This document shows, piece by piece, positions 9,164-27,084 of a stretch of 27,084 bases of DNA. Origin of the DNA: an uncultured Bacilli bacterium (GTDB lineage: Bacteria > Bacillota_I > Bacilli_A > RF39 > UBA660); the NCBI GenBank assembly GCA_944363895.1, contig CALVVP010000080.1:1-27084 (forward strand). The letters run 5' to 3'. Each line of letters opens with the position of its first letter. Position 1 is the first letter of the stretch. Below the pieces are notes generated by a model that searched no databases, was not told the DNA's origin, and worked only from the letters and a program-made list of their open reading frames with translations. Both the position numbers and the translations under genes were made by a program.

Positions 9164-9181
9164 CCATTGGCTATTTTTTTT
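9154..9181. terminator. Bidirectional intrinsic terminator between convergent pgi and noc-like genes
   Basis: AAAAAAATAGCC-ATT-GGCTATTTTTTT: perfect 12-bp inverted repeat with a T tract on each strand. Confidence 0.85.
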
Positions 9182-10859
9182 CTATTTTAAATATTACTTG
9201 ATATGAATCTTCAAAATCAATTTCTTCAACATCAACAGTAAATCCATATTTTTCTAATGTATTTTCGCATTCTCTTATTGTATTTAAAGCTAAACGCATA
9301 TTAGGTGCAGCAGCGGTAATTGTTGTTCCGGTATTTTGTGCTGCGATATTATTTTCTACTTCTTGATTATTCATATTAGTTGACTGAATAACTGAGTTAT
9401 CTATACTAGGTATTTCAGTTGTATTATTGTCGATAGGCACTTCATATATTGGTTGATTATCAGTAGGTTCGTTAATTATTGAAGGATTTGATTCAATATT
9501 TGATACCCCTGGTACTGTTGGTTCAATTGACGATACACTTGGTGTACTTGGTACCTCTGGCATTGTTGGTTCAATTGACGATACACTTGGTGTACTTGGT
9601 ACTTCTGGTATTGTCGGTTCGACTGTTGGTACACTTGGTTCAATACTTGGCATGCTTGGTACTTCTGGTATTGTCGGTTCAATTGTTGGTACACTTGGTT
9701 CAATACTTGGCATGCTTGGTACTTCTGGCATTGTCGGTTCAATTGTTGGTACACTTGGTTCAATACTTGGCATACTTGGTGCCTCTGGTATTGTTGGTTC
9801 AATTGATGGTACACTTGGTTCAATACTTGGCATACTTGGTGCCTCTGGTATTGTCGGTTCAATTGTTGGTACACTTGGTTCTGTGCTTGATGATAAAGAA
9901 GTTGAATCAGTCACATTATTAGTATTCATATTACTAAAGAAATTTTCTAATTTAAAATCACTTTGATTATTTTGTTCAACTTGTGGTTCTTCAAAGAAAT
10001 TGAAAAATTTACCTTCATGAAGAGGTTGTTCATTCGTTTCAACAGCAGTAGTACTAGAAGGTGCCTTTAATAATTCATCCATATCAGCAACAGGTTTTTC
10101 TTGAGGAGTTATATCTTGTGCAGTTTGTTCAATTTTATCAATATCCATAAAGCCTGGTAATTTAGTAGTATCAATACTACTTAATTCAATATCAGGAATT
10201 TGAACTACTTCTTCTTTAACAATAGGGTTCTCAATTGGTTGATTATTTGTATTTTCATTTAACATTTTATCAATCTCCTCATCTGTTTTTCGAACTGTCA
10301 ATCGTTCAGTTATAATTCTATTTAACATTTCAACTTGTTTTTTTTGGTCTTTCAATTTTAATAATGATCGAGCGTGACGTTCAGAGATTTTATTTTCTAA
10401 TAAGGCTTCTTGAACTTCATCACTTAAATTTAATAATCTTAATGTATTAGCAATAGATGATTGGGATTTTCCCACTTTTTGAGCTAAATCTTCTTGGCTA
10501 ATATAGCCCATATCCAATATTTTTTTATATGAGATAGCTTTTTCAATTGGGGTTAAATCTTCTCTTTGAACATTTTCAATTAAAGCAATTTCGACACTAT
10601 CTTTATCAGTCATTTCTGAAATAATAGCTGGAATTGTTTGTTTACCTGCTAAAACACTAGCTTTATATCTTCGTTCTCCCGCAATTATTTCATATTTATC
10701 GCCAATTCTTCTAACGACAATTGGTTGAATAACACCGTATTTTTTAATTGACAAAGCTAGTTCATTAATTGAATTTTCATCAAATTTAATTCGTGGTTGG
10801 AACCTATTTGGTAAAACATCATTTATATTTAATTCGACAACTTTTTTTTCATTTGGCAC
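9171..10859 (-). CDS. noc: ParB-family CTP-binding DNA-binding protein of the Noc (nucleoid occlusion) type with a ~320-aa low-complexity insertion; 562 aa
   Basis: GTG start after AGGAAGGGG. PNRFQPR, IQPIVVR, IAGERRYKA, ALIENVQREDL, HTH LAQKVGKSQSSIANTLRLL, ISERHARSL. The C-terminal MRLALNTIRE...GF.V..EEIDFEDSYQVIFKIEK resembles the Noc C-terminal domain as I recall it. Located directly after rsmG, the position of noc in Bacillus. Confidence 0.75.
   Translation of the reverse strand: MPNEKKVVELNINDVLPNRFQPRIKFDENSINELALSIKKYGVIQPIVVRRIGDKYEIIAGERRYKASVLAGKQTIPAIISEMTDKDSVEIALIENVQREDLTPIEKAISYKKILDMGYISQEDLAQKVGKSQSSIANTLRLLNLSDEVQEALLENKISERHARSLLKLKDQKKQVEMLNRIITERLTVRKTDEEIDKMLNENTNNQPIENPIVKEEVVQIPDIELSSIDTTKLPGFMDIDKIEQTAQDITPQEKPVADMDELLKAPSSTTAVETNEQPLHEGKFFNFFEEPQVEQNNQSDFKLENFFSNMNTNNVTDSTSLSSSTEPSVPTIEPTIPEAPSMPSIEPSVPSIEPTIPEAPSMPSIEPSVPTIEPTMPEVPSMPSIEPSVPTIEPTIPEVPSMPSIEPSVPTVEPTIPEVPSTPSVSSIEPTMPEVPSTPSVSSIEPTVPGVSNIESNPSIINEPTDNQPIYEVPIDNNTTEIPSIDNSVIQSTNMNNQEVENNIAAQNTGTTITAAAPNMRLALNTIRECENTLEKYGFTVDVEEIDFEDSYQVIFKIEKK
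9511..9881. repeat. Intragenic tandem repeat: about five 60-bp units (20 aa, EPTIPE[AV]PSMPSIEPSVP[ST]I) plus two 48-bp units (16 aa, PEVPSTPSVSSIEPT[MV])
   Basis: Lines 9601, 9661, 9721, 9781 and 9841 align column by column with few substitutions; GTTGGTTCAATTGACGATACACTTGGTGTACTTGGTAC occurs at 9517 and 9565 (48-bp period). Confidence 0.95.
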
Positions 10860-24357: not shown

Positions 24358-26811
24358 ATGGATAGATTAGAAAAAAGAAATATAGTAGATGAAGTAAGAC
24401 AATCTTTTATTGATTATTCGATGAGTGTTATTGTTTCACGGGCTTTACCGGATTTAAGAGATGGTTTAAAACCTGTTCATAGACGTATATTATACACAAT
24501 GTATGAAGACAATTTAACACCCGATAAGCCATTTAGGAAAAGTGCAACTACGGTTGGTGCTGTTTTAGGTCGTTATCATCCGCATGGTGACTCCTCAGTT
24601 TATGATGCGATGGTTAGAATGGCTCAAGATTTTAGTTATCGTTATGTTTTAGTTGAAGGTCATGGTAATTTCGGTTCGATCGATGGTGATGGAGCAGCTG
24701 CTTATCGTTATACGGAAGCTCGTCTTTCTAAATTATCACTTGAATTATTAAGAGATATAAATAAAAATACGATTGATTTTACTCCTAATTTTGACAATAC
24801 AACAAAAGAACCAGTTGTTCTACCTAGTAGATTTCCTAATATTTTAGTAAGTGGAACAATGGGAATCGCTGTTGGTATGGCCACTAATATCCCACCGCAT
24901 AATTTGGGTGAGGTAATTGATGGTTGTGTTGCTTATATTGACAATAATGATATAACTGTTTCTGAATTAATGCAGTATATTAAAGGTCCAGATTTTCCAA
25001 CAGCAGCAACTATTTTGGGCAATAATGGTATTAAAAAAGCTTATGAAACTGGTCGTGGGACAATTACTATTCGTAGTAAAGTCGAAATTGTGGAAAATAA
25101 CAATAAAAATCAAATTATTATTACAGAATTACCTTATCAAGTTAATAAAAAAGCTTTACAAGAGCGGATTGGTGAATTAGTTCGGGAAAAAATAATCGAC
25201 GGCATTAGTGATCTTCATGATGAAAGTAATTTAAAAAATGGTATTAGATTAGTTGTCACTTTGAAAAAAGAGGCTAATGCTAATGTTGTTTTAAATAATT
25301 TGTTTAAACATACTCAATTACAAACTACTTTTGGAATAATTTTATTGATGTTAGATGAAGGTCGTCCTAAAATTTTAAATTTAAAAGAAATTATTTCTAA
25401 ATATATCGATTATCAAAAAATAATTATTATTAGAAGAACTAAATTTGATTTAGATAAAGCTGAAAAAAGAGTTCATATTTTAGAAGGTTATAAAATCGCT
25501 TTAGATAACATCGATGAAGTAATTAAAATTATTAGAAATGCGGAAAGTGATGTTATCGCAAAACAGGAATTGATGAATCGTTTTGGTTTATCTGATATTC
25601 AATCTGATGCTATTTTAGAAATGAAGTTAAGAAGATTAACTGGATTAGAAAGAAATAAAATTGAAGAAGAATTAAAAGAATTGTTAAGTTTAATTGAAGA
25701 ATTGAGAGCTATTTTAGAAAGTGATGAGAAAATTTATAATATTATTAAAGAAGAATTATTAGCAATTAAAGAAAAATATGGTGATGAAAGAAGAACTAAT
25801 ATTGATATGACTGCCATTGAGTATATTGAAGATGAATCTTTAATTCCTGTTGAAGATATTGTTATTACTTTAACTAATAAAGGTTATATTAAGCGAATGA
25901 CTACTGATACCTATAAAACCCAAAATCGTGGGGGAGTGGGAATTAAAGGTATGGCAACTAATGAAGATGATTTTGTTGAAAATATTATTTCTATGACTAC
26001 TCATGATTATTTATTGTTCTTCACTAATAAGGGTAAGGTATATCGAATAAAGGGTTATGAAGTACCTTTATATAGTCGTCAATCTAAAGGATTACCAATT
26101 ATTAATTTGTTGTCTTTGGATAAAGATGAATCAGTAAAAGTTATGCTGAAAGTTAGTAATGAAGAAAAAGATAAATATATTGTATTTTGTACACAAAAAG
26201 GACTAGTTAAAAGAACAGATTTAAGTGAATTTGAAAATATCAGAACAAATGGTAAAATCGCTATTACTTTAAAAGATGATGATGAGTTAATTTCTGTTAA
26301 GAAAACTAATGGTGAAAATGAGATAATAATTGCTTCTTCTAATGGTAGAATGATTCGATTTAATGAAAATGAAATTAGAGTAATGGGACGTACTGCTTCT
26401 GGTGTTCGTGGTATTGATATTGGCGATGGTGTAGCAGTAGGATGTGAAATTGCTGAAAAAGGTCAGAAGATTTTAGTTGTAACAGAAAAAGGTTATGGTA
26501 AAAAAACTGATGTTGAAGAATATCGTATGACTCATAGAGGTAGTAAAGGTGTTAAAGGATTAAATGTTACTGAAAAAAATGGTAATATTGTATCATTTAA
26601 AACTGTTCATGATGATGAAGATTTGATGATTATTACTAATAGTGGTGTTATTATAAGATTGCCAATTGAACAAGTTTCTTCAACTGGTCGTATTGCCCAA
26701 GGTGTACGATTGATTAATTTGAAGGATGATCAAAAAGTTTCTACTGTTGCAATGATTGAAAAAGAAAAAGAAAGTCTAATTGAAAATGAAGAATCTAGTG
26801 ATAATGACTAG
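24358..26811 (+). CDS. gyrA: DNA gyrase subunit A
   Basis: [27 protein letters not shown], catalytic RYTE, GyrA-box-like QNRGGVG at 25921-25941, C-terminal beta-pinwheel repeats. Confidence 0.97.
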
Positions 26812-26821
26812 ATTCTTTTTT
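26789..26821 (+). terminator. Intrinsic terminator overlapping the gyrA stop
   Basis: AAGAATCTAGT-GATAATG-ACTAGATTCTT (11-bp stem) followed by TTTT. Confidence 0.75.
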
Positions 26822-26910
26822 AATTTTTAAAATTGTAATGAAATATTTTTTTAATATTGAAAATTATGTTAAAAATTATATTCAATTTTTAAAAATGGTA
26901 AGAAGATTTT

Positions 26911-26940
26911 TTGATTTCAACAAGTTATCCACAGTATAAT
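26911..26940 (+). promoter_or_regulatory. Putative sigmaA promoter containing a perfect DnaA box in its spacer
   Basis: TTGATT (26911-26916)-18 nt-TATAAT (26935-26940); TTATCCACA at 26925-26933. Confidence 0.55.
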
Positions 26941-26958
26941 CGGAGTTTTAAAGAGGTT

Positions 26959-26983
26959 GCATAATTTCTTATAGAAATTATGC
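26959..26983. repeat. Perfect inverted repeat 1 (11-bp arms, 3-nt centre)
   Basis: GCATAATTTCT-TAT-AGAAATTATGC. Confidence 0.9.
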
Positions 26984-27015
26984 TTTTTCCCATTAATTTA
27001 TTAATGGGAAAAAGC
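26982..27015. repeat. Perfect inverted repeat 2 (16-bp arms, 2-nt centre)
   Basis: GCTTTTTCCCATTAAT-TT-ATTAATGGGAAAAAGC. Confidence 0.92.
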
Positions 27016-27020
27016 CCGTA

Positions 27021-27084
27021 TAACTAATGTTTCACGTGGAACTATAAATAACTAATGTTTCACGTGGAACTATAAATAACTAAT
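27021..27084. repeat. 28-bp tandem repeat, each unit carrying a parS (ParB/Spo0J binding) site; truncated by the window end
   Basis: Unit TAACTAATGTTTCACGTGGAACTATAAA starts at 27021, 27049 and 27077 (partial). TGTTTCACGTGGAACT at 27028-27043 and 27056-27071 matches parS TGTTTCACGTGGAACA at 15 of 16 positions. Confidence 0.88.

Follow-up and report, generated by a model that had tools for sequence, protein, structure and literature searches.

What two back-to-back perfect palindromes are doing between the last gene of a replication-origin region and a centromere-like parS array is the question raised by this locus. The window analyzed here, 27,084 nucleotides, is the entire contig C80 of a metagenome-assembled genome (MAG) of an uncultured gut Bacilli (991,759 bp in 115 contigs, 27% GC). 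It carries the replication-origin region, running from rnpA to dnaA, dnaN, comK, recF, gyrB, and gyrA, and the encoded GyrA displays the Pfam domain DNA_topoisoIV together with six DNA_gyraseA_C repeats. The 11-bp and 16-bp palindromes that follow gyrA are called P1 and P2, and the features discussed are collected in Table 1.

The palindromes and their setting

The two perfect inverted repeats with a common GC dinucleotide that the first-pass annotation had reported were recovered at the same coordinates. The shared GC lies at 26982-26983, and P2 is laid out as GC-T5-CCC-ATTAAT / TT / ATTAAT-GGG-A5-GC. From the end of P2 it is 4 nt to the 28-nt repeat and 13 nt to the first parS core (27029-27042). 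In 200 dinucleotide shuffles of the window no 16-bp arm arose, and arms of at least 11 bp occur four times versus a shuffle mean of 0.43. Among the 85 perfect hairpins of the 991,759-bp genome with an arm of at least 11 and a loop of at most 6, P2 ranks second in length. Folding gave z-scores of −6.3 (+ strand) and −6.6 (− strand), with predicted RNA energies of −10.3 kcal/mol for P1 (z −5.8) and −18.9 kcal/mol for P2; as a DNA hairpin, P2 reaches −14 kcal/mol.

The 28-nt repeat resumes at the end of contig C38, where it is followed by the SRP RNA gene, tadA, and dnaX; it is because of this tandem repeat that C80 ends where it does. Full parS sites are found in the assembly only in this C80/C38 array. 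Besides the Noc-like ParB paralogue of C80, an ordinary ParB, the second one in the genome, is encoded on contig C9. Array units measure 27-28 nt in the subclade that carries P1 and P2 and 36-37 nt in G020, G023, G013, and G007, whose fully or mostly assembled arrays (L010, L009, L013, and L015, respectively) hold 12 to 19 CACGTG cores at 36-37-nt spacing. The units are near-identical inside one species and different across species. At the far border of the array, G000 (the species of the window), G014, G016, and G017 conserve ..ATTCCTGTTCCAC.., a lone parS half-site, followed by CAATTTTAAAAATTG.

Either side of the array is also rich in a 13-nt palindrome, AATTTT-N-AAAATT (in many cases CTAATTTT-N-AAAATTAG). 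The array region has three perfect copies in approximately 450 nt versus 28 in the 992-kb genome, a promoter region on C110 has three further copies in approximately 110 nt, and every relative examined has the motif on the flanks of its array. It is a putative protein-binding site that resembles a CodY box but is shorter by 2 nt.

Table 1. Positions of the features considered in the window and, where named, on other contigs or loci.
Feature	Position	Strand	Remarks
Window (contig C80)	1..27084		entire contig
Noc-like ParB paralogue	9171-10859		encoded on C80
gyrA	24358..26811	+	817 aa; final gene of the dnaA-dnaN-comK-recF-gyrB-gyrA row; reads toward the palindromes
T1, first gyrA terminator (terminator scan)	26788..26828	+	12-bp hairpin (26788-26818) across the stop codon, then T-rich run
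AATTTT-N-AAAATT sites	26822-26834, 26884-26897; C38 11896-11939 (L002 1433-1476); C110 17393-17505
Promoter-like TTGATT-18-TATAAT	26911..26940	+	scores 10/12
Perfect DnaA box TTATCCACA	26925-26933		in the promoter spacer
P1	26959..26983	+	arms 26959-26969 / 26973-26983; 11 bp, 3-nt loop UAU, closing GC; perfect
P2	26982..27015	.	arms 26982-26997 / 27000-27015; 16 bp, 2-nt spacer; perfect
P1 U-tract	26984..26988	+	T5; doubles as outer 5' arm of P2
Tandem 28-nt parS array, start	27020..27084		one parS site per unit; runs off the contig end
TTATCCACAATAAT sites	L012 about 1745-1765 (G010); L010 about 1310-1330 (G020)
Far-border sites of the array	L002 1480-1500 (C38); L040, L042, L043

Occurrence in relatives and compensated changes

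The module was searched for by BLAST and then with a covariance model built from six sequences. Of the 30 species of the genus, seven (G000, G014, G016, G017, G018, G022, and G045) have it, each genome with a single copy, and a pattern scan gave an extra copy on a human-gut metagenome contig, L032, which the covariance model matches too. Its position is constant: it follows gyrA and precedes a parS array built of 27-28-nt units. BLAST, an exact core search, and the covariance model all return a single copy in the 992-kb assembly, and a dispersed palindromic repeat (REP/BIME-like, or the ends of a MITE) was rejected on the finding of one copy only per genome. A covariance-model search of 151 genomes from 86 genera of the order matched the genus only, and none of the 149 other genomes gave a convincing copy; a marginal match in G049 (E 0.0095) turned out to be an unrelated terminator-like hairpin. 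BLAST in distant mode against 72,556 plasmids gave no match, and therefore no sign of a mobile element. Searches of both contig ends at E <= 1 placed no Rfam family at the module, only SRP RNA on C38 and a chance match; the sole Rfam match overlapping the module, WsnRNA46, scored 22.5 bits versus a gathering score of 65.3 (E 0.33). P2 thus keeps the status given to it at first, that of a palindrome explained by no annotated feature and no Rfam family.

The species of the genus that have a parS array and fall outside the module subclade carry the array at the same place without P1 or P2, which shows that the array does not need P2. In those with 36-37-nt units, T1, a spacer, and a weak CTAATTTT-N-AAAATTAG hairpin precede the array, and P2 is absent.

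The search for compensatory changes in relatives that had been proposed was fruitful. The palindrome comparison covers 8 sequences (the seven species and L032) with one informative wobble pair. A separate search gave about 120 close GyrA homologues, one of them on a 1.13-Mb contig; GyrA identity among the module-bearing species is 84-93%. In the structural alignment, standard pairs occupy 98.4% of the pair cells, and at seven pairs both partners are altered, P1 accounting for three of these pairs and P2 for four. In 500 shuffles the observed covariation was never matched, and sliding the partners by 1-3 columns left 40-60% paired. The inner triplet of P2 runs through CCC, TCC, TTC, and TTT across the species while the opposite arm runs through GGG, GGA, GAA, and AAA, around an invariant center, ATTAAT-TT-ATTAAT. 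P2 is perfect in 7 of the 8 sequences, with one mismatch in G016. There the T-run has mutated, with a compensating substitution in the arm that holds the A-run. From this pattern we infer selection on P2 itself as a base-paired structure, maintained through compensatory changes.

The two hairpins differ in what they tell about strand. P1 of G014 contains a U.G pair on the + strand, which on the − strand is a C.A pair; this is a clue that agrees with P1 acting in the + strand RNA. P2 is without any G.U pair, four covarying pairs notwithstanding, and therefore nothing ties it to RNA rather than DNA.

P1, a probable gyrA terminator

The first terminator of gyrA, T1, has a predicted RNA folding energy of −13.8 kcal/mol and is homologous, judging from outgroup sequences, to the GAAGAAT..ATTCTTC-plus-T-run terminator of the other species of the genus. 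It is present beside P1 in G000, G014, G016, G017, and G045, where a spacer of 100-190 nt separates the two.

The promoter that had been placed upstream of the palindromes is indeed found there as a promoter-like sequence (Table 1). In the spacer of these five species, a DnaA box is fused to a −10-like hexamer (window 26921-26940) on the gyrA side and points into the array. Box and hexamer together (GTTATCCACAGTATAAT) are kept in 5 of the 8 sequences: G000, G014, and G045 have them unchanged, whereas G016 and G017 each differ by a single change. By our reading of the sequences a good −35 exists in G000 only, and conservation does not extend to the 18-28 nt that separate the −10 from P1. A similar TTATCCACAATAAT is seen in G010 and G020 on the far (SRP RNA) side and on the other strand, also pointing into the array.

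P1 itself is listed by the terminator scan on the + strand, with the tail TTTTTCCCAT. It forms a stable stem-loop with an immediate 3' U-rich tract and lies downstream of, and co-oriented with, the end of gyrA. The distance from the gyrA stop codon to P1 is 147 nt in G000 and 4 nt in G018, and in G022 and L032 the stop codon falls within the 5' arm of P1. The tract reads U5 followed by CCC in G000, U6 in G014, and U7 in G017, G018, G022, G045, and L032; it has decayed to CUUUACC in G016, the other six relatives having T6-T7. A GC stands at the base of the P1 hairpin (−11/−10) in G000, G016, G017, G018, G022, and L032, and a TC in G014 and G045. An in-register RU (−2/−1) is found only in G018, G022, and L032, the three sequences whose P1 tail reads GC-U7-AU; at that place G000 has CA. 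The GC-U7-AU of these three fits exactly the GC(U)7RU motif, with its GC at the hairpin base, for which enrichment at strong termination sites and, from mutagenesis, a requirement in termination have been demonstrated (Battaglia et al. 2026, bioRxiv 10.64898/2026.05.29.728758). Because in three relatives it lies at the gyrA stop codon and reads GC-U7-AU, P1 is very probably a Rho-independent terminator on the + strand.

Two statements of the first-pass annotation, that neither palindrome has a 3' U tract and that neither is a terminator, consequently divide between the palindromes. They do not apply to P1, with its GC-ended stem, TTTTT at 26984-26988, a tract of U5-U7 across the relatives, and the orientation of gyrA, and they stand for P2, which has no U tract on the + strand and is not canonical. 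The GC common to both palindromes is best read as the hairpin-base (bubble-edge) GC of the P1 terminator, and the T5 that gives P2 its reversed polarity as the U-tract of that same terminator.

Where T1 exists, P1 is predicted to be a second-line stop, and a weak one, because the tract is U5 followed by CCC in G000 and CUUUACC in G016. Both stems are nonetheless paired in these two species despite the poor U-tract, perfectly in G000 and with the single P2 mismatch in G016, which hints at selection on the hairpins themselves. G018, G022, and L032 (loci L007, L011, and L032) are without T1 and the entire spacer (window 26788-26958), and their GyrA C-terminal tails are unlike those of the others. 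In these three it looks as if a deletion left P1 as the sole gyrA terminator, the U-tract then having become the ideal GC-U7-AU. A small ORF from the ATG at 26980 (15 aa) was considered and rejected, having no ribosome-binding site and no ATG in G014.

The second palindrome: a proposed stop module and its alternatives

P2 is followed on the + strand by CCGUAUAAC, which is no U-tract, and on the − strand by AUAAUUUCU, which holds 4-5 U in 9 and passes a lax scan with interruptions at the proximal positions. The reverse polarity noted for P2 was confirmed: on both strands the T5 is 5' and the A5 is 3', the opposite of the A-tract 5' and U-tract 3' of a bidirectional terminator. P2 is therefore not a canonical terminator on either strand. 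No other of 146 terminator-like sites in the genome pairs its U-tract into a strong downstream hairpin (−13.7 versus −8.7 kcal/mol for the next), so that terminators do not generally share the arrangement. On the − strand beyond the array, 3 promoter-like sites were observed versus 3.2 expected from shuffles. No comparable hairpin or mirror terminator was found on the far side of the array in G000, G014, G016, G017, and G018, and the SRP RNA gene on that side points outward; this absence fits a stop signal needed only where transcription enters the array.

On balance, we favor a reading in which P1 and P2 make up a compound transcription-stop module at the gyrB-gyrA 3' end, before the parS array. 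P1 would catch read-through from T1 and transcripts from the DnaA-box promoter 12 nt upstream, and would keep RNA polymerase out of the centromere and its ParB-parS complex; in G018, G022, and L032, where T1 and the spacer are absent, it would act as the only gyrA terminator. P2 would be a second hairpin built on the T-run of the terminator, forming in + strand RNA that escapes P1 and acting through base pairing rather than as a sequence read by a protein. For a polymerase on the − strand, the first hairpin would be P2, closed at its base by the shared GC, which is self-complementary, with the T-rich P1 arm coming next. Each palindrome would in this way provide the tail of the other, and transcription would be stopped or hampered both ways at the array edge, with P2 as an accessory hairpin shielding the array. 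The poor − strand tail and the lack of a − strand promoter above chance speak against a two-way stop. A role of P2 as RNA in termination or insulation is put forward tentatively, as a possibility that falls short of an even chance.

P2 may instead work as DNA, extruding a cruciform on negatively supercoiled DNA at the gyrA-side edge of the array, with P1 still a terminator; there it could block sliding ParB clamps or SMC, or absorb supercoils. Its perfection in 7 of the 8 sequences and the lack of G.U intermediates among four covarying pairs are what would be expected if both strands pair. The 2-nt spacer, the AT-rich center, and the DNA hairpin energy given above also suit extrusion, as do a polarity useless for termination, the place next to the array, and pairing kept in G016 despite the lost U-tract. 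A stem of 16 bp is, however, short for stable cruciform extrusion in vivo, and array-bearing species beyond the subclade have no such palindrome, nor does the far array edge. Moreover, the ordinary bidirectional terminators of this genome are typically perfect palindromes with very short spacers too, so that perfection alone is not diagnostic. We regard the cruciform as unlikely. The fuller proposal, that P2 is a selected cruciform-prone boundary mark of the repeat centromere on the gyrA side, built by co-opting the terminator T-run, is more doubtful still; such a mark would halt ParB-CTP clamps or SMC, or buffer supercoiling where transcription of the gyrase operon ends.

P2 could also be functionless, an inverted duplication of the terminator tail (GC, T-run, and 9 nt) made by fold-back template switching and kept perfect by hairpin-templated repair rather than by selection. 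The left arm of P2 consists of exactly the terminator GC, the U-tract, and the bases that follow, and the module is restricted to one subclade. The right flank, GCACGTATAAC in relatives, resembles a truncated array unit, and the right arm has TAATG in common with the start of each array unit, which suggests a rearrangement of the border. P2 nevertheless survives across 84-93% GyrA identity while the nearby spacer diverged or was deleted, and long perfect palindromes are usually unstable. The stepwise series of the inner triplet, matched on the opposite arm with pairing retained, also goes against a passive relic, and we consider this origin without function to be rather improbable.

The bases directly after P2, GC(C)ACGTATAA.. 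(window 27016-27028), resemble a truncated array unit (CACGT...ATAA) and are found at the same place in L005, L007, L008, and L030. They hint that P2 arose by rearrangement at the array border.

A small RNA had been among the first suggestions. The DnaA-box promoter would then make either an RNA of approximately 45 nt that stops at P1 or one with two hairpins, P2 among them. The promoter score of 10/12, the conservation of GTTATCCACAGTATAAT described above, and a purine-rich stretch before P1 in all sequences are in keeping with it. The promoter segment is, however, absent in 3 of the 8 sequences (G018, G022, and L032), where P1 and P2 are intact, and neither the −35, usable in G000 only, nor the stretch between the −10 and P1 is conserved. 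The U-tract of P1 would end the RNA before P2, and no terminator follows P2. With no Rfam family, and with neither a second copy nor a target-like sequence in the genome, the small RNA is disfavored and appears very unlikely.

Operators for dimeric DNA-binding proteins had likewise been suggested, and the Noc-like ParB paralogue would be one candidate for such a protein. Both palindromes are symmetric, the center of P2 is invariant, and its outer half-sites in G000 (TTTTTCCC / GGGAAAAA) resemble half-sites of Noc-binding sites (NBS). The CCC/GGG of these half-sites is not conserved, and the matched changes to TCC, TTC, or TTT, with the opposite arm following, are a signature of base pairing and not of a protein reading the bases, which is why operators are disfavored. 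P1 and P2, furthermore, are unrelated in sequence and each single-copy in the genome, and canonical NBS-type sites with a different spacing occur elsewhere in it. Operators for dimeric proteins are accordingly judged highly improbable.

The identity of the palindromes with a ParB parS or a Noc NBS, 16-bp palindromes of the form TGTTNCACGTGAAACA or TATTTCCCGGGAAATA with abutting half-sites, was rejected: in P1 the half-sites ATTTCT/AGAAAT are 3 nt apart, and in P2 CCC/GGG are 14 nt apart and not conserved. The reading of the TTTCCC...GGGAAA of P2 as an NBS was dropped for the same variation and because real NBS geometry differs. Likenesses to dif/Xer, a ComK box, and a DnaA-trio were also set aside on what we take to be misfits of position or spacing.

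Noc-binding-like sites were seen at C38:4691 (ATTTCCCGGGAAAT) and, as one- or two-base variants, at C38:10496, C80:10977, and C69:2454. They fit the Noc-like ParB paralogue predicted at 9171-10859.

A fold-back or chimeric assembly artefact, which the 69 nt between the palindromes and the end of the MAG contig might suggest and which the first-pass annotation had named as a refutation, has a negligible probability, since seven further genomes or contigs, each assembled independently, show this architecture at the equivalent position with compensated changes peculiar to the species, and the contig end is owed to the tandem repeat that resumes on C38. Both palindromes are non-chance and are no assembly artefact.

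Several known systems can be set beside the stop module that we favor. P1 resembles the intrinsic terminators of Battaglia et al. (2026) in its stem ending in GC, followed by U5-U7 and co-oriented at the gyrA stop, and G018, G022, and L032 read exactly GC-U7-AU. It differs from them in the U5 followed by CCC of G000, in having T1 upstream, and in a U-tract that is the arm of a second, stronger hairpin. Termination units made of paired hairpins directly behind a stop codon have been described as a class (Gupta and Pal 2021, PMC8355165). The module resembles them in having two hairpins separated by less than 15 nt at a gene end, the first canonical and the second lacking a U trail. In contrast to them, P1 and P2 overlap by 1-3 nt, and P2 is a perfect 16-bp palindrome with the P1 U-tract as an arm. 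With bidirectional terminators, of which the genome has many, it has in common a symmetric perfect palindrome and the prospect of stopping polymerase from either side, but the polarity of P2 is opposite, so that it cannot work in that manner and two different hairpins would be needed for the two strands.

In lambda tI / sib retroregulation, the hairpin itself is lengthened by read-through into an RNase III site. Here also the terminated and read-through RNAs would differ in structure, with the extra arm in the read-through RNA only, but P2 is a separate hairpin. As for centromeres, the palindromes border a head-to-tail array of ParB-family binding sites of the kind seen in sopC of the F plasmid, where, however, a terminator/palindrome module is not known to be a defining part.

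Most of the apparent oddity of the locus reduces to ordinary terminator parts, a hairpin-base GC and a U-tract, and the promoter, the hairpins, and the parS array therefore need not form an exotic control element. What remains, a modest and lineage-restricted curiosity, is a 34-bp perfect palindrome welded to a terminator at the edge of a parS centromere and kept through the divergence of seven gut species. [quoted passage not shown]
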